A stretch of 25,255 nt of DNA. It comes from a virus (taxonomy: Duplodnaviria; Caudoviricetes). Under the pieces are notes generated by a model. It did not search any database, was not told the DNA's origin, and saw nothing but the letters and a program-made list of their open reading frames with translations. The stretch covers positions 1-25,255 of IMG/VR virus record IMGVR_UViG_3300025674_000355; one strand, 5' to 3'. This document shows, piece after piece, positions 2,476-18,101 of the stretch (the stretch's first letter is position 1; the number at the start of each line of letters is the position of its first letter). A program made the position numbers and the translations under genes.

Positions 2476-3411
2476 TCACTTGTCTGCCTCCATCTTGCGC
2501 AGCTGCTGAGCAGCCCATCTGGCCACTCGCTTGCCACGTCTGCCACCCCACAGGCCAAGGGCTTGCTTGGCCTTTGGCACATGGCCTTGCTCGTCTCTGG
2601 CTGGCGCTTTGTCTGCTGTGCCAGCTGCCCGATTGATATAATCACGCATCCTTTCAAGCGTCTCTTTGCTCAGTGGCCTGCCACCAGCAAGATCTCTGGC
2701 TCTGGCAATGCCCACAGGCGTGCCAGCGCGCTTGCTGGGTGGCGCCTCAGCCCTGGCTTTGAGCGCCCACTTGGCAGCGTTGCGCATCCATTGAGGGGGC
2801 TTTACTGACTCAGCCTGCCTGGTGCTTTGAGGGTGATCCTTTGGCAGCAAGTCAAGATCAGTGGTGTAAGACTTCTTACGCTGGCCAGTCTTCAGCAGCT
2901 TCAGGAAAGCATTGACCCTGCCCATGCTCCACTGATTGCGAGACATGCCAGGCCTGTGACTTGTTGAGAATGCGCCAGCGCCGCGACGATAGACAGCTTT
3001 CAGGGTGCCAATGTCCACAGCGCGCTTATTGCCTTTGAGCGCATCCACTTTGGCTCTCAGCGCCTTCTCGGTGGCCTTGTCGATCTTGATGCCACCCCTG
3101 GTGCCTGAGGCTGAGCCTCTGGGATTGCGCTTGCTGCCCTTGATGCGGTCTTCTTTGGGTGCTGGGGTCTGCGCCTGTGTGCGCCCATCACCAAGCTGCG
3201 CCAGCTGTGTGACCTTCTCATATGGGTAGAAGCGCTTTACAAGCCAGTGCAGATACTTGCCCTTGGACCTTGCAGCGAGCATGTATCTGAGGTTCTCAGC
3301 GGCGCCTTTGTAGTCATACACACCACCATTGCGAAAGATCACCCTGAGATCATCGCCAGACTTGCCAACCTGATCCACATTGCTGCTAGTGACTTTTGTC
3401 AATGGTGCCAT
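2476..3411 (-). CDS. Basic multi-domain protein: KTSC domain + DUF5824-like domain + phage head-associated 'GTPVGIARARDL' domain
   Basis: N-term VTSSNVDQVG...LRVIFRNGGVYDY...AARSKGKYL (KTSC); middle LKAVYRRGAGAFSTSHRPGMSRNQWSMGRVNAFL; C-term AGTPVGIARARDLAGGRPLSKETLERMRDY...LWGG. Confidence 0.7.
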   Translation of the reverse strand: MAPLTKVTSSNVDQVGKSGDDLRVIFRNGGVYDYKGAAENLRYMLAARSKGKYLHWLVKRFYPYEKVTQLAQLGDGRTQAQTPAPKEDRIKGSKRNPRGSASGTRGGIKIDKATEKALRAKVDALKGNKRAVDIGTLKAVYRRGAGAFSTSHRPGMSRNQWSMGRVNAFLKLLKTGQRKKSYTTDLDLLPKDHPQSTRQAESVKPPQWMRNAAKWALKARAEAPPSKRAGTPVGIARARDLAGGRPLSKETLERMRDYINRAAGTADKAPARDEQGHVPKAKQALGLWGGRRGKRVARWAAQQLRKMEADK

Positions 3412-6533: not shown

Positions 6534-7580
6534 TCAAGCAAACAGGGTCTGTTGCGCGCTGGCTTGCTGGATACAATGGGGTGATAGCCACAGGCGATCT
6601 CTGTGCATCTGGGTGGTGGCGCCATACCCACCCTTAAAACAACTTTCAGCAACATTTTGAAACCAATCCACCACAACCCAGCCAGCATCTTCAAGCGCCT
6701 GGTGCTCTACCTCAAAGCCAGCAAGCACAATTCTCAGCCTTGGATCATCGCCATGTTCAAGCGCCCACTTGCCCACATCGCCAGCGATTGTGCTTGAATC
6801 ATGGTTGTAGACATCAGACACACCATCAGCCCCATACGGTGGATCTAAGAAGACCCCACACACACCACCCATACGCACCTTAATGGTGTGTGTGCTGCCC
6901 TTGGTGCATATCCTTGACCAATCGCCATTCAAGATGCGCACATGGCGCAAGCGAGCACACAGCGCCTTCATCCACTTGACGAGCTTTGGCATGGTCATGG
7001 GGTGTGGCTCGCCAAGTCCTGGCTCTCTCATATTGCCAAGCAACACACCCCTGCCATCATGGCCATTAAAGGGCTTTCCACGCACCACACCCCTGCCTGT
7101 CTTTGATTGCTTCACCAGCCTGCCATCTTCATCAGCGATCCATGCACCCTTGCCTGAACACCAGCCAGCGCCTATCCAGCAACACAGACCCCACACCCAC
7201 CAGCCAGCGATGCGAGCATCATAGAAGGCAGCATCACCCATCAGCCTCAACAGCATCTCGTCAGTGCGCCACTTCAAGATGCCAAGATGCCTGGCATGAA
7301 GATCTGCCTCTGCCACAGGCCAGCTGGCGTGCTCAGCCACAGCTTCAGGATCAGCCTGCACAGCGCGCCAGAAATTCACCAGCAAGCCATCAGCGTCATT
7401 GACTGTTTCACTGTGATAGGGGCGATTGGCTTTGTGTGGGCGCCTGAGAAGCACAGCCAGCGAGCCAGCAAAGGGCTCCACATAGTGATCCACATCACCA
7501 AGCGCAGACCACACAGCCTCAGCTGCCCTTGACTTGCCACCAAACCATGGGAAAGGTGCTTTGATATCAAACTGTGTCAT
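6534..7580 (-). CDS. D12-class N6-adenine DNA methyltransferase (Dam-like)
   Basis: APFPWFGGKS, YVEPFAGS (SAM binding), ETVND, and catalytic FLDPPY. Confidence 0.92.
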   Translation of the reverse strand: MTQFDIKAPFPWFGGKSRAAEAVWSALGDVDHYVEPFAGSLAVLLRRPHKANRPYHSETVNDADGLLVNFWRAVQADPEAVAEHASWPVAEADLHARHLGILKWRTDEMLLRLMGDAAFYDARIAGWWVWGLCCWIGAGWCSGKGAWIADEDGRLVKQSKTGRGVVRGKPFNGHDGRGVLLGNMREPGLGEPHPMTMPKLVKWMKALCARLRHVRILNGDWSRICTKGSTHTIKVRMGGVCGVFLDPPYGADGVSDVYNHDSSTIAGDVGKWALEHGDDPRLRIVLAGFEVEHQALEDAGWVVVDWFQNVAESCFKGGYGATTQMHRDRLWLSPHCIQQASAQQTLFA

Positions 7581-8241
7581 GCTTCACCCCCTTGATCCAT
7601 GGTCGCTGCCTTGTGAGATTTGATGTGGCTGTGACAAGCCTGAGCTTGGCAGCTGCTTTGTGGTATGCCTGCCATGACTCAGCCAGCGCCCTATCAGCCA
7701 GCGTGGCTTGCCACTGGCCTTTGACAATGGCCAGCGCATCCACCACCAGGCCCTGGCTTGACAGCCAGTCAAGCGCCACCAGCACAAAGGGCCTGGCATG
7801 ATCCACATGCACTGCTGAGCCTGCCAATGGCGCGCCTGAGATGGCACACACTGTGGCAGCGCTCTGAGCCCTGAAGTCTTCAATCTGTGGCCTGATCTCA
7901 GCGCGCAGCGCATCAAGCACTTCAGTGCGCTTGCTGGGTGGCGTGATGCACTTGATATAGCTCCAATCAATCAAGCTGCCATCTTGCCTGAGCGCCCAGA
8001 AGCAATTGAGCCTGGCTGTGTTGCGTGGGTGCTGTGATGGCGCCACCACAATGCCAGCCAGGCCAGCGCCCACCTTATCAAGCAGCTGGGGGTGATGCGC
8101 CAGCACATCAGACACAAAGCGCTGTGACCTGCCTTTGAGTTTTGTTGGCACCCTGGCTGCGCTCAGAATCTTCCTGCAATCGGCTGTCACAGCCTTCTTT
8201 GTGGTGTAAAGCCTGTCACCAAGCACCACTGGCATCTTCAT
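7567..8241 (-). CDS. DCL/DUF3223-family domain fused to a putative His-Me (HNH-like) nuclease
   Basis: HHPQLLDKVGAGLAGIVV...CFWALRQDGSLIDWSYIKCI matches the DCL signature (HP...K.G.G...CF...R.DG...DFSY.KC). C-term CAISG...VHVDHARPF...W..YH...LRLVTATSNL. Confidence 0.75.
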   Translation of the reverse strand: MKMPVVLGDRLYTTKKAVTADCRKILSAARVPTKLKGRSQRFVSDVLAHHPQLLDKVGAGLAGIVVAPSQHPRNTARLNCFWALRQDGSLIDWSYIKCITPPSKRTEVLDALRAEIRPQIEDFRAQSAATVCAISGAPLAGSAVHVDHARPFVLVALDWLSSQGLVVDALAIVKGQWQATLADRALAESWQAYHKAAAKLRLVTATSNLTRQRPWIKGVKHDTV

Positions 8242-10189: not shown

Positions 10190-11088
10190 GCATCACCCCC
10201 AAAGAGAATTGAGCGATCCAGCGATGCCAGCGCAGCTGCTGTGCGCGCGCGCCTGGCCTGCTTCTCTTCTTCAGTCTCAGGGGGTGGTGGCTTTGGCGCT
10301 GGCTGGCTTGAAGGTCTGCGCATATCCCTGCCCCTGGTGAGGCTGGCAGGGTACAAGGCGCGCTTGACTTGCTCTTTTGTCCATGGCGCCTCATCGCCTT
10401 TGGCTTTCCGGAGCTCAGCGAAGAAGAGCCCCCTGGCGTTGCCAATGTCTTTGGTGCCAACAGCCAGCGCAGTTTCACCCAGACAGTGGCTCAGCATGTC
10501 TTCAGTGACATCAAGCCTGACTCGCCTGAGCTGAGCCAGCGTTGGCAGCGAGCCCACACCCACTACTTCACTCCAAACATCCTGCCAGCCAGCCAGGCGC
10601 TCAGCCTTGGCTTCTTTGCTGGCGATGTGTGCCACTTCGCTTGCTTGCTCTCTTCTTTGTCTCTTCTTTATTTCTTCGTGGGTATCCATTTGGGGGTGGT
10701 GTTGGGTATCCATTTGGGGGTGGTGTTGGGTATCCATTTGGGGTGGGTATTCATTTGGGGTGGGTATCCATTTGGGAGTGGTGGTGGGGTCTGATTTAGG
10801 GGTGGTGGTGGGGTCTGATTTGGGGGTGGTCAGCTGATAGCTTGAAGGCTTGCCAGGGCGCTTGATGCGCTTGATGTAACCAAGGTCTTCAAGTGCGCTC
10901 AGCGCCTTTGAGACAGTCTTGATATTCAGCCTGGCGCCTTTGGCAATGGCTGTGACTGATGGGTGCACAGTTGGCAGATAGGTGGTGAGCACAAACAAGG
11001 TGAGCTTGTGTGATGCGCTCAGGCGCTGATCATCTCTGATGATGCGCTGATAGTCATAGGTCTTGACTGGCTTTGTGGGGTTGATCAC
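10186..11088 (-). CDS. Replication initiator (lambda O-like, N-terminal winged HTH) with internal iterons
   Basis: HPSVTAIAKGARLNIKTVSKALSALEDLGYIKR wHTH; repeat-encoded linker; immediately upstream of DnaB. GGAG RBS supports GTG 11088. Confidence 0.85.
   Translation of the reverse strand: MINPTKPVKTYDYQRIIRDDQRLSASHKLTLFVLTTYLPTVHPSVTAIAKGARLNIKTVSKALSALEDLGYIKRIKRPGKPSSYQLTTPKSDPTTTPKSDPTTTPKWIPTPNEYPPQMDTQHHPQMDTQHHPQMDTHEEIKKRQRREQASEVAHIASKEAKAERLAGWQDVWSEVVGVGSLPTLAQLRRVRLDVTEDMLSHCLGETALAVGTKDIGNARGLFFAELRKAKGDEAPWTKEQVKRALYPASLTRGRDMRRPSSQPAPKPPPPETEEEKQARRARTAAALASLDRSILFGGDA
10680..10830. repeat. Iteron array, putative replication origin
   Basis: Five GGGTAT(C/T)CATTTGGG units start at 10680, 10704, 10728, 10745 and 10762. 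Two GGGGTCTGATTT(A/G)GGGGTGGT units start at 10786 and 10810. A pyrimidine/AT-rich tract lies at ~10648-10678. Confidence 0.85.
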
Positions 11089-11112
11089 AATGATCTCCAA
11101 GTTTTGAGTTTT

Positions 11113-11158
11113 CACCAATGGCGTGCCGGGCTGCAACCCACATGGCGCGCCATTGGTG
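11113..11158. promoter_or_regulatory. Intergenic inverted repeat (15-bp arms) upstream of the initiator gene
   Basis: CACCAATGGCGTGCC ... GGCGCGCCATTGGTG, 14/15 Watson-Crick pairs; no following U-tract on either strand. Confidence 0.6.
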
Positions 11159-11165
11159 TATCAGG

Positions 11166-11516
11166 CTACACACCTGCCTTATCGCTGGCAAGCCTGGTGG
11201 CTGCTTTGAATTTGACTGCAATGCCAGCGTTTAAAGCTGAGCGCCTGTGGTATCCCCACCACTTATAGTCATCAAGGCGATACCACAGGCCAGACATGCC
11301 CTTGGCATATTTTGGAATCCAGACAAGCTCAGCGCTGCCATCAGCAGCCCACTTCACACTGATATAGCTTTTTCGCACTGGCGCCCTGTATTGCTGGCGC
11401 TTCTGCCAGCGCAGCCCCCACACATAGTGTCTGGTGGCTTCATCCTTCTCAGACTTGCCAAGCTTCTCAGGCCCTTTGTGTGGCCTGTGGTCTTTGATGG
11501 TGGTCAGATCAATCAT
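11166..11516 (-). CDS. Hypothetical basic, Trp/Tyr-rich protein
   Basis: MIDLTTIKDH... start overlaps the Cro-like gene stop; 116 aa. Confidence 0.65.
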   Translation of the reverse strand: MIDLTTIKDHRPHKGPEKLGKSEKDEATRHYVWGLRWQKRQQYRAPVRKSYISVKWAADGSAELVWIPKYAKGMSGLWYRLDDYKWWGYHRRSALNAGIAVKFKAATRLASDKAGV

Positions 11517-11760
11517 TGTCCAGATCCTTGCAGAAGTCAGCAGCTGCGCTGGCGCACTTGCCATCAGGGTCAAGCAGGTTGGCAAGCTCAATGCCAGTGA
11601 TCAGCGAGACCACCAGCGCCACATCAGCGCGCCATGGGGTGCGTCCTGACAGATAATCGTAAAGGCTCTGTGTGGCGCACCCAGCTGCCTGAGCCAGCTG
11701 AGCCACTGAGCGATCATTGAAGGCCAGCCATGCCTTGATCTTCTTCCTCTGTGTCTTCAT
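11509..11760 (-). CDS. Cro/XRE-family HTH regulator
   Basis: SVAQLAQAAGCATQSLYDYLSGRTP HTH; GGAGGG RBS before ATG 11760; first gene of the leftward unit at a divergent promoter region. Confidence 0.85.
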   Translation of the reverse strand: MKTQRKKIKAWLAFNDRSVAQLAQAAGCATQSLYDYLSGRTPWRADVALVVSLITGIELANLLDPDGKCASAAADFCKDLDND

Positions 11761-11792
11761 CTCAATGCCCTCCATTCATCGGCACACCCACT

Positions 11793-11821
11793 TAAATGCC
11801 AATGGCCTTGCATGCTGTCAA
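11793..11821 (-). promoter_or_regulatory. Leftward sigma70-like promoter for the Cro/replication operon
   Basis: TTGACA (11821-11816), 17 nt ending TGG, then weak -10 CATTTA; back-to-back with the rightward promoter. Confidence 0.5.
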
Positions 11822-11830
11822 CCCACTTCG

Positions 11831-11916
11831 ATTATTTTCCATTATTCTGTTGACAGTGGGGATAGGTGGGTTTAGATTGTTCACATGGCAGGGCAATGGA
11901 GCCCATCACCAAAGGA
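11831..11916 (+). promoter_or_regulatory. Rightward early promoter/leader module, copy 1
   Basis: AT-rich UP-like tract, TTGACA 11850-11855, 17 nt, TAGATT 11873-11878, hairpin GGGC-AATGGA-GCCC 11891-11904, RBS AAAGGAG. Confidence 0.85.
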
Positions 11917-11922
11917 GCCATC

Positions 11923-12660
11923 ATGGACTACACACTTTCACAACTGCTTGAGACCTCAGCCACCCTTCTCAACGTCATGGTGCAAGCCTTCATCAAGACT
12001 GGCACTGTCAAGCAGGCTCGCTTGCAGGCGCTCAATGGCCTGTGGTCAAAGGTCAATGGCCAGACCTTTCTGCGCTTTGAAGAGATCGGCGGCTGCGCCG
12101 AGCTCCACATTGGCCATGACTTGACCCTCTACAGTGACGGCCTGGTGATGGCGCGCTGTGCTGGCCAGTGGGTGAACATCTCTGATGACATCCTGCCTGA
12201 CACTGAAGACATCGTTGCGCAGTGGTGGGCGGACACCATGACCACTGAAGACACTGAAGATGATGCTGCTGAGCTTGAAGCTGAAGCCATCCTGATGGCA
12301 GCGGCGCCAGCGTATGAAGTGGATGGTGTGCCTGGTGTCTTTGTGCGCAGTCGCACTGATGCGCAGAAGGCCTATTCAGTGGTGGGTGGCAAGGCTTGCA
12401 ACTGTCCTGCCCATCGTAAGTGCTGGCACTTGAGCGCTGCTGAGCTTGCGCCAGCATGGGAGTTTGCAGCGCGCAGCCTCTACGCTGCGCTCAGCCCTGA
12501 GTTCACCCCAAAGACTCGCGCACAGACTGTGGCCAGCATGTGGCGCCAGACGCTGGATCAGGCGCCCACCATCAGGCGTGGCAAGGTGGATGTGGTGTCT
12601 GCTATTCGCCAGTTCAGCGCAGATGCCAGCGCAGTCATCACTGAGCTTGCCAAGGATTGA
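11923..12660 (+). CDS. Acidic early protein with SWIM-type zinc finger
   Basis: AAAGGAG RBS before ATG 11923; YSVVGGKACNCPAHRKCWHL fits CxC-xn-CxH. Confidence 0.75.
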   Translation: MDYTLSQLLETSATLLNVMVQAFIKTGTVKQARLQALNGLWSKVNGQTFLRFEEIGGCAELHIGHDLTLYSDGLVMARCAGQWVNISDDILPDTEDIVAQWWADTMTTEDTEDDAAELEAEAILMAAAPAYEVDGVPGVFVRSRTDAQKAYSVVGGKACNCPAHRKCWHLSAAELAPAWEFAARSLYAALSPEFTPKTRAQTVASMWRQTLDQAPTIRRGKVDVVSAIRQFSADASAVITELAKD

Positions 12661-12890
12661 AGATGATGTGTGCCACGTGTGGCGCTGTGGGGCTGGACAC
12701 CAGCCCCCACTTCAAGGGCCAGCTGCTGAGCGCTTCACTGTGGGCGCTCGAAGCTGGCAAGGGCACTCAGCGCGCCTGGCACCCCAGATCAAGACAGATC
12801 ATCACAGGGCACATTGTGCCCATCTTGCAGGCATCAAAGGGGGCGCTGCTTGTGAGACTCATACACCAATGCCCACCACCAAAGGAATGA
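12657..12890 (+). CDS. Hypothetical small protein (CxxC at N-terminus)
   Basis: Fills the gap with 4-nt overlaps at both ends; MMCATCG. Confidence 0.55.
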   Translation: MKMMCATCGAVGLDTSPHFKGQLLSASLWALEAGKGTQRAWHPRSRQIITGHIVPILQASKGALLVRLIHQCPPPKE

Positions 12891-12892
12891 CC

Positions 12893-13870
12893 ATGCTAAA
12901 GATCAGCACCATTCTCACGATTCATCAGATGGCAAGCGATGCCATCAAAGAACTGAAGCAGGCTCCATGCCAGCCACACAGCGAGCACCAGACGCTGATT
13001 GATGCCCTGGTGGATGTGCGAGACATCAGCGCCAGCCTTGGTGGCCAGCTGGCCTGGCAACAGGCCTTGAAGAGCTCTTCAGCGCCTGAGCCTGCCAGCG
13101 AGCCAGCGCCAGCGCCAGCGCCTGAGCCTGATCCACTGCCACAGCCTGATGTGGCGCTGGCGCCTGGTGTGTCTCACCAGGCGCTTCTGAGGCTTGCACA
13201 GATCGCCTTGCCTGAGCCTGCCAGCGCGCCAGCGCCTGCCAGCAAGCGCGCCACCACTGATGACTGGCTTGATGCTGGGTCAAAGGCAGTGCAGAAGCGC
13301 AAGCCAGGCGAGCCATCCACCAAGGCGATCCTATCAGTGATCAGGGTTTATGCCACTCAGCCTGAAGGGGTCATGGTGGGTGATGTCATCAAGGCAGATA
13401 AGGTCAAGGTGGCAAGGCATCTGGGGTGCAGCAAGTCACAGGTGCAGAAGATCAATCGCTGGCTGAAGCTCGCTGGCCTGATCAGGCCTGCAAATGATGA
13501 TAACCCATGGGCCTCAGATGGCTGTCATTGGATCTTGACCCTGCCTGATACAAAGCCCACAGCCATCACCAGGCCAGACTGGCTGGCTTGCGCGCTGAAG
13601 TCACTGGCCAGGCGCAAGACTGGTGAAGCAGACCCTGAGGCCTTGAAGGCGATCATTGGCGCCTGTGCCAGGCTCGCCAAGTGGCAGGGGGCTGATCTTC
13701 AAGTGGTGGCAAGCGCTGCCACTTTCGCCAAAGAAGCAGACATCAGCACCAGCACAGCAATCAGATGCATTTACTGGCTGCGCTCAAAGGGGCTGGCATC
13801 GACAAAACAGGCGCCCACAAAGCAGAAGCCCATCAAGATGGCCTTGACCATGCCAGGGGGTGCGCAATGA
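12893..13870 (+). CDS. Protein with Pro/Ala linker and two tandem winged-HTH-like repeats
   Basis: Start trimmed to ATG 12893 (or 12887) after AAAGGA. Internal duplication: DWL...KRKPGE...VARHLGCSKSQVQKINRWLKLAGLI and DWL...RRKTGE...FAKEADISTSTAIRCIYWLRSKGLA. Confidence 0.7.
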   Translation: MLKISTILTIHQMASDAIKELKQAPCQPHSEHQTLIDALVDVRDISASLGGQLAWQQALKSSSAPEPASEPAPAPAPEPDPLPQPDVALAPGVSHQALLRLAQIALPEPASAPAPASKRATTDDWLDAGSKAVQKRKPGEPSTKAILSVIRVYATQPEGVMVGDVIKADKVKVARHLGCSKSQVQKINRWLKLAGLIRPANDDNPWASDGCHWILTLPDTKPTAITRPDWLACALKSLARRKTGEADPEALKAIIGACARLAKWQGADLQVVASAATFAKEADISTSTAIRCIYWLRSKGLASTKQAPTKQKPIKMALTMPGGAQ

Positions 13871-14214
13871 AGACAGCCCCACTTTATGACTACATTGCCA
13901 CTGCCCTGAGGCAGGGCGCTGAGCTGATGGCTGAGTGCGACGATGGCGCACAGCAGAAGAAGGCCTGCCAGCATGTGGCGCACTGGCTCCAAGTGCTAGA
14001 GCTGCCAGCCAAGCTGAAGAGCGCTTCAGCCTTCAAGCACACCATTTACATCAAGGGCATTGGCTGGCTTGACTGGCATGATGGCCTCTGGCGCCTGTGT
14101 GGCCTTGATAGGGCAGGACAGGGCTTTGCAGCCTATGGGCTCAGGGCCTGTGCGCAGATGATCTTTGAGCTTAACTTGAGTCAACAGCCTGAGTCTGAGG
14201 CATTGACACACTGA
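13867..14214 (+). CDS. Hypothetical protein
   Basis: MKTAPLYDY... start in an ATGA overlap with the upstream stop; 115 aa. Confidence 0.65.
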   Translation: MKTAPLYDYIATALRQGAELMAECDDGAQQKKACQHVAHWLQVLELPAKLKSASAFKHTIYIKGIGWLDWHDGLWRLCGLDRAGQGFAAYGLRACAQMIFELNLSQQPESEALTH

Positions 14215-14677
14215 CACGCCTGGCCAAGGTGGATGGCTCAGCCCACCTTGGCCTTCAAAGCTCAAAGGGGTGGTGCTCACCACCGACAGCTGAGCCTATG
14301 CGCTGAAGAGACCTTCTGAGGGGCAGTGCCTCAGCAGCGCCTTGATCTGGCAGATGCATCGCTTCTTATCCTTTGGTGGGTGATGGGCTGGCAGATCAGC
14401 TTTCAAGCAATGCCAGCGCCCACAGTGGCATCGCACACTTTGCTGATCACTTTCTTGATTGGCATTCAATATGGAACCATGATCCTGTGGGCTTGTCCCC
14501 TTGGCAGGCCAGCTGCCACACAGTGCAAGCCTGTGCAAGGGGCCTGGTGCTGATGGTGCTTGCGCTTGATCGGCCAGTGTCTCTGATGTCACAACTAGGG
14601 ACCGGACAGATCATCAGCTTAAGAGCGATGTGATCAAGTGCATCACCTGAAGCGCCCTTTGCTGTGAGGGGCTGCCC
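14215..14677 (+). ncRNA. Candidate structured non-coding RNA or long regulatory leader
   Basis: Largest gap without a convincing ORF, containing serial stems at 14222-14253, 14260-14295, 14300-14340, 14384-14422, 14497-14542, 14549-14618 and 14654-14672. No family recognised; strand is tentative (G-U pairs favour +). Confidence 0.45.
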
Positions 14678-15367
14678 ATGCTGAAAGTGCCACTGAGCCC
14701 TGAAGAGATCGCCACCATCAAAGCACGCACCCTGGCTGGCGAGCCCACAGGCCAGATTGCCAAAGCCCTTGGCAGATCCACCAGGGCTGTCAATCGAGTA
14801 AAGCAAGCCCTTGGCCTTGGCTCGCCAGCCCCAAAGGTCAAGGCCATGTCAGATGCTGAGATTGACCACATTGGCAGGCTGTGCAAGCAGGGCCTGAGTG
14901 TGCCTGAGATTGTGAAGATCTCCAAGCGCAGCCCATCAAGTGTGCTTAGAGCCATCAGGCTCAAAGGCTTGAAGCCACTGAAGCAGATGCATGGCGAGTC
15001 TGAGCGTTGCAGGCTCAGGGCGCTGAGCTTTGTTGCCCTTGGCTACCCATCAGCCAAAGTGGCCAAGCTGTGTGGTGTGACTCAGGATCAAGTCAAGCAA
15101 TGGATGAAGGCAGACACTGACATCAGCCTGCCAAAGCAGATGCCAAAGCACATCAGGGGCTGGCGCCTGGTGGAAATCGTAGAAGGCGCTGAAAGCTGGC
15201 AGGATGAAGACAGTGGCTTGCAGGCTACTGTGGCAAGGCGCATAAGAAGAGAATGGCGCTTGCTTGATCCATGGTCTGAAGAGATCTTCATCACCAGGCA
15301 GGCTGCGCTTGATAGAGCCAGGGGCCTGATCCATGACACAAGACAGCATCACCACACTGATCATTGA
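14678..15367 (+). CDS. Triple-HTH DNA-binding protein
   Basis: Three HTH repeats: GEPTGQIAKALGRSTRAVNRV, GLSVPEIVKISKRSPSSVLRAI, GYPSAKVAKLCGVTQDQVKQW. GAGGGG RBS. Confidence 0.75.
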   Translation: MLKVPLSPEEIATIKARTLAGEPTGQIAKALGRSTRAVNRVKQALGLGSPAPKVKAMSDAEIDHIGRLCKQGLSVPEIVKISKRSPSSVLRAIRLKGLKPLKQMHGESERCRLRALSFVALGYPSAKVAKLCGVTQDQVKQWMKADTDISLPKQMPKHIRGWRLVEIVEGAESWQDEDSGLQATVARRIRREWRLLDPWSEEIFITRQAALDRARGLIHDTRQHHHTDH

Positions 15368-15845
15368 AGGCCAGCCTGTGGCCTATATGAGACCTCGCGC
15401 AGCTGCCAGGGGCAGAAAGGCCACAGTCTATACACCAGCCAAGCTTGAACAGTGGTATCAATCCAGCGCTGTGCAGCTGCGCATTCAATGGGGCGCCACA
15501 CCACCACTGACAGACCCGCTCAGGGTTGATGTGGTGGCTGTGTGTGCAAGGCCAGCGAGCCTGCCAGCGAGCCTCAAAAGCATTGGCTTTACCTCAGCCA
15601 GCTGGCGCGCTTGCGCTGAGCGCACACCAAAGCTCACAGCGCCTGATGCTGATAACTTCTTAAAGAGCGCCCTTGATGCGCTGCAAAGGGGTGGGGTGAT
15701 CCATGATGATCGCCTGGTGGTGGATGCCAGGGTGGTCAAGTGCCATGCTGCGCCTGGTGAAGAGCCACACCTTGAAGTCACCTTACATCAAGCCAGTCAG
15801 AATATTTTCCAATATTCTGTTGACAATGGGGATAGGTGGGCTTAA
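15333..15845 (+). CDS. rusA: RusA-family Holliday junction resolvase
   Basis: IEGQPVAYMRPR, VYTP, and catalytic PDADNFLKSALDAL...IHDDRLVV...K motif. Confidence 0.92.
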   Translation: MTQDSITTLIIEGQPVAYMRPRAAARGRKATVYTPAKLEQWYQSSAVQLRIQWGATPPLTDPLRVDVVAVCARPASLPASLKSIGFTSASWRACAERTPKLTAPDADNFLKSALDALQRGGVIHDDRLVVDARVVKCHAAPGEEPHLEVTLHQASQNIFQYSVDNGDRWA

Positions 15846-15893
15846 ACATGAATCATTGATGTGGGCAATGGAGCCCACATCACACCAAAGGAT
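15798..15893 (+). promoter_or_regulatory. Rightward early promoter/leader module, copy 2
   Basis: Palindrome CAGAATATT-TTCC-AATATTCTG, TTGACA 15820-15825, 17 nt, TAAACA(T), 10-bp hairpin TGATGTGGGC-AATGGA-GCCCACATCA 15857-15882, RBS AAAGGA. Confidence 0.8.
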
Positions 15894-15900
15894 TCAACCC

Positions 15901-16422
15901 ATGTTTGAATTGACCCCAGCCCAGCGCCTTGCCATCTATGTCTTCAGCCAGGATCTCAACAACATTGAGGCCATTGAGGCCTTGAATGCTGCCATGCCAC
16001 AGCGCTTTGACGCTGGCGACACCAGCCCCTTCATCTATGACGCTGATCACCTGCTTCAGATTGGTGGTGGCAGTGACTGGCTTGATCTCGTCTTTGAAGA
16101 TGGCCAGCTGCATGGCGAGCATGGCGCTGTGGATCTGGCCAGCGCTGAGCCTGCCATTGAGGCCATGGCTGTGCAGTGGCTTAATGATGCCAAGTGTGAC
16201 TTGGAGGCCCTGGTGCATGATGAGATTGATGGTGTGAGCTATGACGCCACACCCCTTGAAGCTGCCACCATCATCTGTGGCACTGTGGATGCCATGGGCT
16301 TCAAGCTCAGCCAGGCGCCAGCGCTTGAAGACATCGCTGGCATCATCTCAGGCTCTGGCACTGAAGAAGAGCGCGCCAGCAAGGTCATGGCGCACATCAT
16401 CAGCCTGAGCGCAGATGCCTAA
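15901..16422 (+). CDS. Highly acidic hypothetical early protein
   Basis: ATG 15901 after AAAGGA; 173 aa; hand count 31 D/E versus 6 K/R. Confidence 0.75.
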   Translation: MFELTPAQRLAIYVFSQDLNNIEAIEALNAAMPQRFDAGDTSPFIYDADHLLQIGGGSDWLDLVFEDGQLHGEHGAVDLASAEPAIEAMAVQWLNDAKCDLEALVHDEIDGVSYDATPLEAATIICGTVDAMGFKLSQAPALEDIAGIISGSGTEEERASKVMAHIISLSADA

Positions 16423-17464
16423 GCCACTTGATGCCAGATGCCAGATCCCAAAAGATCTGACATCTGCCAGGCCCTTCAATCTCAGGCTGGACCACCACTA
16501 AAGCAGACTCCCCATGCTGCTGTTCGGGAAAGCCACCCCTCTTGGCATAGCCATCAGCCTTCTTGTATCCCCTCACTCTGATTGCACTTGTGACCCTGCC
16601 ACGCCTGTGCTCGCTGGTCAGTTCACCCCACTGGTGGATGTGGCCAGCTGCAAAGATGTGGGCTTCACCATCAAGCAGGGCCTCTTTATGTGGGCCGTGG
16701 GTAGGGTGAAACCAGCTGCGCCCCCTGAAGTCATGCCTGAGCTTGATCACCAGGGCTTCAAGGTCTGGCCTGTCTCGCCATTGCAGGTATAAGCGCAACT
16801 CGTCTGGGTCATAGCACTTCACACCATTCTGCTCACAAAGCCATTGCAAGGGGTCAAGGCCTGGCACATGTGACCATGCATCATGGTTGCCACCCACCAC
16901 TGCCAGCCACTGCCCCTGGCTCAGAAGCCACTCGCTGGCTTTCCACCCCTCAGAAGCCAGGCTTGACGAGTTTGCATAGAGCTTGCCTAGCCTGCCAATC
17001 CAATTATCTTGCATGTCACCAATGCAGGTGATCAGCACCCCTGGCTCACACAGCAGCTTGATGTGGTCATGGAGTGCAGACCAGTCACAGCCATCATTGT
17101 CGACGTGTGGATCGCCTATGATGGCAATGGCCATGGGCTCAGCTGGCAGTGTCACCAGGCGCGCTGGATTGTGCTTTGCTCGCTTGCGCTTGCTGGCGCG
17201 TACCCTGGCCTTGATCCATTCTTCAATGGGCTCATCTGGCAGGGGCTGGGGTCTGCTCACTTCCACAGACAGTGGCTGTGTGGCGCTCAGGAAGTCTTCA
17301 GTGGTGGGTGGGTGCTGGCCTGTCCAATACTGCCAGCGCAGTGGATGGGCTGGGTCTTTGCGCCTGAGGGGACAGCCAGCTGTGCCACGCTCACATCTGC
17401 TTCTCAGGGTGCTTTGGCCTATGCCAAAGTGCTCAGCAGCTTCTCTGGCATTGACCCACATCAC
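16400..17464 (-). CDS. Calcineurin-like metallophosphoesterase with N-terminal HTH
   Basis: IGDPH, IGDMQDN, GGNHD, RH and AGHIH motifs; N-term NAREAAEHFGIGQSTLRSR. Confidence 0.85.
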   Translation of the reverse strand: MMWVNAREAAEHFGIGQSTLRSRCERGTAGCPLRRKDPAHPLRWQYWTGQHPPTTEDFLSATQPLSVEVSRPQPLPDEPIEEWIKARVRASKRKRAKHNPARLVTLPAEPMAIAIIGDPHVDNDGCDWSALHDHIKLLCEPGVLITCIGDMQDNWIGRLGKLYANSSSLASEGWKASEWLLSQGQWLAVVGGNHDAWSHVPGLDPLQWLCEQNGVKCYDPDELRLYLQWRDRPDLEALVIKLRHDFRGRSWFHPTHGPHKEALLDGEAHIFAAGHIHQWGELTSEHRRGRVTSAIRVRGYKKADGYAKRGGFPEQQHGESALVVVQPEIEGPGRCQIFWDLASGIKWLRHLRSG

Positions 17465-17802: not shown

Positions 17803-18101
17803 CATCCACCCCCTGAAAGGCGCTTGAAGCCTTCTTTGCCAGATAGGAAAGCCAGCACCACAATCAGTGGCTGGATCGTCTCTTCAGTGATCTGGCCTTG
17901 GCTCGCCAGCCACATCAGCCAGGCCAGCAAGCCACCACCCACCACAAGCAGTGTGATGGCTATGGCAGTCTCCTGCCAGCTGGCCTTGCCATCCTTGTCA
18001 AAGTCGATGGGGCTTTGTGTCGCCTCAGGGGCTTTGTCAGTGGCCTTCTCAGGCCCTTCTTCAGGCTTTTCTGTTGCATCCATGTCTGGCCGCGCCTCCA
18101 T
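17802..18101 (-). CDS. Putative two-TM holin with EF-hand-like loop
   Basis: Two hydrophobic segments, basic C-tail, DFDKDGKASWQE loop; alternative start 18083. Confidence 0.55.
   Translation of the reverse strand: MEARPDMDATEKPEEGPEKATDKAPEATQSPIDFDKDGKASWQETAIAITLLVVGGGLLAWLMWLASQGQITEETIQPLIVVLAFLSGKEGFKRLSGGG

Follow-up and report, generated by a model that had tools for sequence, protein, structure and literature searches.

A candidate hairpin RNA mirrors a shared leader tag of likely early phage genes beside a tRNA top-half mimic

What is a single inverted copy of a ribosome-binding-site motif doing in an intergenic region of a phage that carries the same motif, in sense orientation, ahead of three of its genes? 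The question arises from a virus record that we analysed over its whole length of 25,255 nt, called the window here. A sequence-only reading of this DNA had noticed a + strand segment antisense to the leaders of three early genes, and had proposed either an RNA that co-represses them or a fourth leader on the minus strand serving a 34-aa ORF. Proteins of the window match terminase, portal, protease, DnaB, a replication initiator, HTH regulators and RusA (Pfam/PHROG). The minus strand carries most genes, and a + strand island lies at 11923-16422. Both copies of a sigma-70-like promoter repeat (D13; 11818-11874 and 15788-15844) belong to this island, whose genes we term early judging by position and promoter type. 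The four matching segments were found where they had been reported (14368-14389, 11900-11916, 12871-12886 and 15872-15893), and the leaders and genes concerned are the following.

11818-11922, + strand: target leader 1, with a sigma-70-like promoter (11850-11878), a 5' hairpin and the tag at 11907-11916
11923-12660, + strand: target gene 1, 245 aa; SWIM-like zinc-finger, as a lead only
12871-12892, + strand: target leader 2, internal to the operon
12893-13870, + strand: target gene 2, 325 aa; weak replication-initiator-like HTH match (E 8e-4)
15788-15900, + strand: target leader 3, with the second promoter-repeat copy, a 5' hairpin and the tag at 15883-15892
15901-16422, + strand: target gene 3, 173 aa; function not assigned by profile searches

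Target gene 1 has no Pfam or PHROG match; its nearest Atlas cluster is 39% SWIM (score 0.89), and it has homologues in L007, L009, L012 and L014. Leaders 1 and 3 start with the same short GC hairpin (11891-11904 and ~15863-15876), and hairpins of this kind, with variable loops, head tagged leaders in all relatives. A CsrA-type site in these 5' hairpins was considered and dropped by eye, conservation being absent.

The core of the tag is the 10-mer CACCAAAGGA, which has four exact matches in the window, three on the + strand and one on the minus strand. The + strand copies start at 11907, 12877 and 15883, each 6-8 nt ahead of an ATG (11923, 12893 and 15901). The inverted copy is at 14369-14378, in the 463-nt stretch that separates the early operon from the HTH-RusA genes. 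One mismatch admits one additional site, and five matches were reached by 2 of 100 shuffles. Perfect antisense complementarity to the 463-nt region extends over at most 11 nt, a length that all three leaders attain; dinucleotide shuffles averaged 6.8 nt and reached 11 nt in 0/1000. A 20-mer of the tag region matched seven metagenome sequences: the window itself (L026), three close relatives (among them L027, the same phage as L001) and three unrelated sequences, which we took as chance or ordinary leaders. In L025 and L028 (5001-5020), on an unrelated, cellular-looking contig, this 20-mer is the sense leader of a 194-aa ORF.

The intergenic region that holds the inverted copy, together with the genes behind it, contains the following features.

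14222-14253, + strand: 11-bp hairpin after the last + strand operon gene, without a U-tract
14255-14359, minus strand: 34-aa micro-ORF behind the inverted tag
14269-14284, + strand: small hairpin, a predicted fold
14300-14340, + strand: two stacked 6-bp helices with a 7-nt loop, read from the sequence, immediately 5' of the long hairpin
14342-14399, + strand: predicted long hairpin, core of the candidate regulatory RNA, with the seed displayed in its loop
14368-14389, + strand: anti-leader segment, whose 5' part (~14368-14378) is the predicted seed over the Shine-Dalgarno (SD) of the tagged leaders
14467-14474, + strand: motif 19-27 nt ahead of the tRNA top-half in 5/5 genomes
14497-14542, + strand: tRNA top-half mimic, with a 7-bp acceptor-like stem, a 5-bp T-stem, a T-loop-like 7-nt loop and no anticodon arm
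14544-14582, + strand: hairpin after the top-half, where relatives have their anti-leader hairpin
14572-14592, + strand: motif also present in L009 and L014, ahead of the HTH gene
14678-15845, + strand: HTH regulator and RusA resolvase genes, directly after the RNA region in all lineages

The long hairpin is predicted to fold at -24.0 kcal/mol on the + strand versus -13.7 kcal/mol on the minus strand, and the predicted fold is unchanged when the whole intergenic region is folded. The seed, whose accessibility mattered to the original proposal, would be largely exposed: in four folding contexts its unpaired probability was calculated as 0.5-1.0 at 14367-14374 and 14377, and as ~0.1 at 14375-14376. 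The hairpin is identical in L001, L029 and L030, and 14286-14421 is unchanged in close relatives (95%). One X15 contig alters two upper-stem bases (14359 and 14360), which counts against an antisense RNA; no compensating change is among the variants listed (all but 15 rows of the table). In the 14316-14334 stem of the neighbouring stacked helices, one X15 contig has two double compensatory changes (14317/14333 and 14318/14332). These helices share their topology with the tRNA top-half of the relatives, and the two may be homologous, although the loop is non-canonical. In L001, the 14222-14253 hairpin differs by a compensated substitution (14227/14248) and by a change to U.G at 14245. Since it has no U-tract, it could be a terminator or a processing or stability element; it is not among the terminator-like sites of the window scan.

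Flanking signals were sought in the same region. The scan, which used sigma-70 patterns only, listed no promoter-like or terminator-like site in 14215-14680, and Rfam returned no credible family in 11000-17000 of the window or over the slot in three relatives. The motif at 14467-14474 may be a promoter or an operator; as a general late promoter it was rejected, late genes being without it upstream. The hairpin at 14544-14582 was likewise rejected as a second anti-leader, its net energies to the leaders (-2.7 to -4.7 kcal/mol) being no better than non-cognate ones. Two of the five matches of the 14572-14592 motif (L118 and L120) fall within an unrelated phage gene and were set aside. A sigma-54 promoter near 14570 was discarded by eye, conservation being absent. 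One RNA run gave a single contig over 14150-14720, which ends at 14217; such contigs carry no strand. Contigs of the RNA runs X19 and X20, both of one study, span the phage but give neither strand nor level, and the lack of X19 cover over 14218-14720 is not counted as absence of transcript. The RNA-run contigs give no sign of the transcript, and this counts against an antisense RNA, as does the failure to find a promoter or a U-tract terminator in the region.

The 7-nt loop at 14497-14542 is one that we take to be T-loop-like, going by the T-loop consensus. A top-half stands in the same slot of L007, L009, L014 and L121 and reads on the + strand in 5/5 genomes. There are four different T-stems, each fully paired, which we count as structure under selection. 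ARAGORN reported no tRNA in 8/8 loci, and a cloverleaf with D and anticodon arms is absent from them. In a search for the top-half, the window, L009, L014 and G001 each yielded a single match per contig, compared with 0-0.07 matches per shuffled contig; a looser search added L007 and two matches in other loci, among 138. By its modelled shape, the mimic is predicted to be a handle for RNase P and/or RNase Z. The adjoining hairpin has a 3' RCCA end in L007, L009 and L014, and none in L121 or the window. The looser search also brought up a second, weaker T-loop-like hairpin in the window (~17810-17850, minus strand, near 17849), at a gene junction.

Comparison with relatives provides the strongest evidence for the antisense proposal. 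The slot is covered by four relative genomes in three other lineages (L007; L009 and L014, which form one lineage; and L121), the DnaB of these lineages being 64-66% identical to that of the window. L048 (terminase 72%) has a different replication module and was excluded, and sequence divergence in alignments A5 and A6 was too great for counting pairs. The tags of the three other lineages, GGAGACCTC, GGAAACCTC and AGGACAAAC, differ from one another and from that of the window, and in each of the four lineages the space from the early operon to the HTH-RusA genes contains a single antisense copy of that lineage's tag, so that an inverted copy occupies the slot in 5/5 genomes. In the relatives this copy lies inside a predicted long + strand hairpin that begins 3 nt past the tRNA top half. 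Tag, inverted copy, synteny, covariation across four lineages and top-half geometry are thus features that can be read off the genomes directly. Tags were picked by eye in three of the four lineages; the L121 case was blind, the tag having been taken from L012 beforehand and its antisense then found in the slot on retrieval.

Tag copies lie over the SD of non-structural genes, three in the window and three to eight in relatives. The 21 kb of L014 hold five exact copies, namely four leaders and the slot copy; leaders account for three of four exact copies in L009 and for six of nine in L007, which also has two strays; L121 itself carries the tag at three leaders. Tagged genes of the relatives include DnaB and other minus-strand genes (L007, L009, L014 and L012), and among identified head or packaging genes none carries the tag, in the window or the relatives. 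In L035, which is L007 reversed, a Type II hammerhead ribozyme (RF02276; 10251-10315, + strand; 37.3 bits, gathering 37) stands directly ahead of a tagged leader in the early operon.

Pairing was assessed by our own duplex-plus-opening calculation rather than by IntaRNA. Among 33 curated gene starts of the window, the three tagged leaders took ranks 1-3 in predicted pairing, with net energies of -12.2 to -13.8 kcal/mol compared with -7.5 kcal/mol for the next start. The predicted seed overlies the SD itself in all lineages. An antisense run of more than 7 nt occurs at no identified terminase, portal or protease gene in any lineage, on rough gene calls that in relatives were automatic and missed some true starts. 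The mean antisense run is 9.0-11.2 nt for cognate pairs versus 5.7-8.5 nt across lineages, and the cognate mean was attained by 0, 2, 4, 1 and 0 per 1000 shuffles in the five genomes. Predicted net energies split cognate from non-cognate leaders for the window, L007 and L121. The L009 and L014 hairpins would pair with L007 leaders, via G.U, about as well as with their own, which counts against an antisense RNA. So do the seed length of just 9-12 nt and the L007 seed, which is partly self-paired in the predicted fold (opening cost at least 6.6 kcal/mol). One of the four L014 leaders is matched by wobble pairing rather than exactly.

Several signs point to the + strand. All five hairpins are predicted to fold better on it, by 1.7 to 10.3 kcal/mol. 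Variants that keep pairing through G.U at 14245, 14279 and 14280 favour the same strand; those at 14279 and 14280 are from two variant X15 contigs and lie in the 14269-14284 hairpin.

A similar layout has been described in cultured phages. In cluster K mycobacteriophages, non-structural genes carry a private tag at their SD, the start-associated sequences (SAS), which also occur in one inverted copy (PMC3203893, PMC11373665); the available text of both papers, of 2011 and 2024, gives their function as unknown, and that of the latter reports late transcription of Adephagia as starting in the gap that holds the inverted SAS (PMC11373665). Like the tags described here, SAS recur as an asymmetric motif that covers the SD of non-structural genes, with one inverted copy away from gene starts. 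They differ in that the published 13-bp consensus is unmatched by the tags of the four lineages, in their copy number of 11-19, and in that no T-loop mimic was found beside them. In Adephagia and Anaya, we found the inverted SAS to be the 10-nt loop of a long + strand hairpin in the predicted fold, and this hairpin region has matches in 186 records. The exact anti-SAS loop occurs in 5/14 cluster K genomes, an imperfect CU-rich loop in another 5/14 and neither in 4/14. A blind covariation test in cluster K succeeded in none of two cases: the loop drifts and the tag stays fixed, DarthP and Unicorn keeping the standard SAS despite altered loops, and this counts against an antisense function. After the inverted SAS (L123 30683-30695 in Adephagia, L124 31871-31883 in Anaya) a larger multi-branched structure follows before the late genes. 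Pixie gene 97 (L125 ~31832-32080) and Ellie gene 94 (L129 87-387) overlap this structured late-leader region and may be miscalls.

Collectively, the covariation, the shuffles, the pairing specificity, the + strand signs, the compensatory changes and the precedent of the c4 RNA lead us to consider it likely that the segment is the loop of a + strand hairpin RNA, a trans-acting antisense repressor of the tagged genes that is probably freed via the tRNA mimic. The multi-target proposal is thus supported by the loop position of the seed, the first three ranks of the leaders among 33 starts and the seed-tag covariation in four lineages. A + strand transcript would be cut at the mimic by host RNase P and/or RNase Z, and the freed hairpin would pair with the tagged leaders over the SD, blocking 30S loading on all of them together and turning down early and replication genes; these steps, including + strand transcription, are our inference. 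Element order counts against the antisense RNA: in the window the perfect anti-leader hairpin precedes the conserved motif and the top-half, and in the four other genomes it follows them on the 3' side. The window hairpin, lying upstream of the mimic, would come from read-through of the early operon and give feedback; the hairpin of the relatives, downstream of the conserved motif, could have timing of its own. An alternative to feedback would be a timed switch from a promoter near 14467. It is our conjecture that a tandem duplication, with one unit keeping the seed and the other the T-loop, produced the difference in order, which it would fit.

The inverted tag could instead serve the minus strand. 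The fourth-leader proposal stood as far as the ORF itself goes: the 34-aa frame is present at 14359-14255, follows the SD at a plausible 9 nt, stops just short of the 14222-14253 hairpin and, with its start codon, is kept within the window's lineage. The ORF is intact in close relatives, and X15 contigs change its ATG to GTG and carry +4/-1 indels (net +3), so that start codon and frame are retained. A leftward promoter near 14470 and an end at the 14222-14253 hairpin would then yield a fourth leader for a translated 34-aa protein, any RNA structure being secondary or dual-use. The 20-mer ahead of the 194-aa ORF in the unrelated L025/L028 and a 35-aa frame at the equivalent place in L014 agree with this. 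In three of five genomes (L007, L009 and L121) the proposal fails, the inverted tag having no start codon after it, and the micro-ORF is therefore probably not the conserved feature. Moreover, the peptide has no homologues in other lineages, the listed X15 and L001 changes mix silent and replacing ones, with four explained by stem compensation on our reading of the codons, and the wobbles and the T-loop indicate the + strand. The micro-ORF may be translated in the window's lineage, and we rate a fourth leader as the role of the segment as quite unlikely. Very unlikely, too, is a decoy or binding site, in which the sense copy of the tag on a minus-strand RNA (or on the DNA) would be bound by a protein that recognises the tagged leaders. 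It would explain the covariation equally well, and the SAS authors, in the text available, left an RNA or a protein partner open (PMC3203893). Against it stand the preference of 5/5 hairpins and of all G.U-keeping variants for the + strand, the + strand reading of the adjacent T-loop mimic, and the finding of no candidate RNA-binding gene among the scanned proteins.

A real + strand RNA might also act other than by trans repression, as a leader or processing element of HTH-RusA, by pairing in cis, or as an activator that opens the 5' hairpins. The element is always directly ahead of HTH-RusA with no terminator before the HTH gene, and in the window the 5' hairpins of leaders 1 and 3 would be invaded if the RNA paired over its full length. 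We nevertheless think this unlikely, since the seed lies over the SD in all lineages, which predicts occlusion, and since cis pairing could not reach those targets that lie downstream and on the other strand (DnaB among others, in L007, L009, L014 and L012). Hardly credible is the remaining explanation, that the match is chance or a local inversion of a favoured ribosome-binding site in a generic pyrimidine-rich loop. Any SD resembles the target of such a loop, and in 5/10 sampled cluster K genomes loops are CU-rich without an exact match; yet the matches here are not confined to the SD and include lineage-specific tag positions, at the same slot in four lineages, and only 0-4 per 1000 shuffles reach them in each genome. 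As far as genome comparison can tell, the phage element appears real and conserved, and the comparative support for an antisense function is unusually strong.

The antisense RNA that we favour has two close known systems, the CI RNA of phage P4 and the c4 RNA. The loop of c4 (phages P1 and P7) pairs at the ribosome-binding site and blocks translation, according to the available text of PMC12197685 (see also PMC8201110), and the c4 precursor is described as an RNase P substrate (PMC11143913). The candidate RNA resembles c4 in lying on the same strand as its window targets and in its predicted loop complementarity to their ribosome-binding sites, and RNase P handles the c4 precursor. It differs in that c4 controls one antirepressor operon whereas the shared tag marks 3-8 leaders, in that targets of the relatives lie on both strands, and in having a separate acceptor/T-arm mimic beside the hairpin. 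Rfam C4 gave no match at E <= 5 in 11000-17000 of the window or in L035, L033 and L038, and no antirepressor was matched among the 32 window proteins; the candidate is therefore not a C4 member. SviR of the Vibrio cholerae PLE is described as a trans-acting, multi-target sRNA that lowers translation of phage genes (10.1101/2022.04.08.487710). The RNA predicted here would share the trans action and the multiple targets, but SviR is directed from a satellite against its helper and, in the source as available, uses different seeds per target with no single shared tag. The phage RNAs sar, OOP and aQ are cis-encoded and single-target, and VpdS and PreS are Hfq-bound (PMC12197685). These, too, set expression by pairing, as is predicted here; they are single-target in cis or host-directed, and in the text available none is described as acting against a shared leader tag of its own genome. 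Unlike Hfq-dependent sRNAs, the candidate has no promoter or U-tract terminator of its own that was found in 14215-14680 with sigma-70 patterns. In mascRNA/menRNA and in the tRNA-miRNA units of gammaherpesviruses, RNase P or RNase Z cuts an acceptor/T-arm mimic that adjoins a regulatory hairpin; those are eukaryotic, and the cleavage here is predicted. Searches of the open-access literature brought up no description of a phage RNA that would pair with a leader tag common to several genes of the phage itself; the 38 undescribed phage sRNAs listed in PMC12197685 may be relevant here.

Phage early-gene shut-off is known mostly at the level of transcription. If the antisense reading is true, the locus would be a compact switch at the level of translation, with targets recognisable directly in the genome sequence, and its four natural cognate pairs are a ready test of cross-lineage specificity. 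We advance more tentatively the possibility that unrelated phage families carry a private leader 'zip code' on early and replication mRNAs together with a mirror hairpin RNA, here freed by host tRNA-processing enzymes via an anticodon-less tRNA mimic, as one off-switch for the entire early programme. This would explain the cluster K SAS, and codes private to a lineage could also act against superinfecting kin. For SAS, the layout offers an explanation testable in cultured phages with transcriptomes.

Metagenome runs containing the phage DNA are from oyster, freshwater, aquatic, marine and marsh samples. No cultured relative was found by blastn, and a terminase search for a cultured relative or host gave 313 matches, every one below 60%. 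The genome-contig search identified no host, its three matches being at 37-39% only. No integrase was found among the 32 window proteins and 31 other scanned proteins, at least 28 of these from relatives. At 14681, where the HTH gene starts, three runs part from the window sequence, which points to allele exchange there. The replication-initiator gene contains 24-nt tandem repeats (10654-10830) that are possibly origin iterons. A DUF3223 gene (7567-8241, minus strand), between a methyltransferase and the DnaB cluster, is missing from the close relatives L002-L004. Between portal and protease, a protein with KTSC and DUF5824 (2476-3411, minus strand) is 75-80% identical across lineages, a conservation that exceeds that of DnaB.
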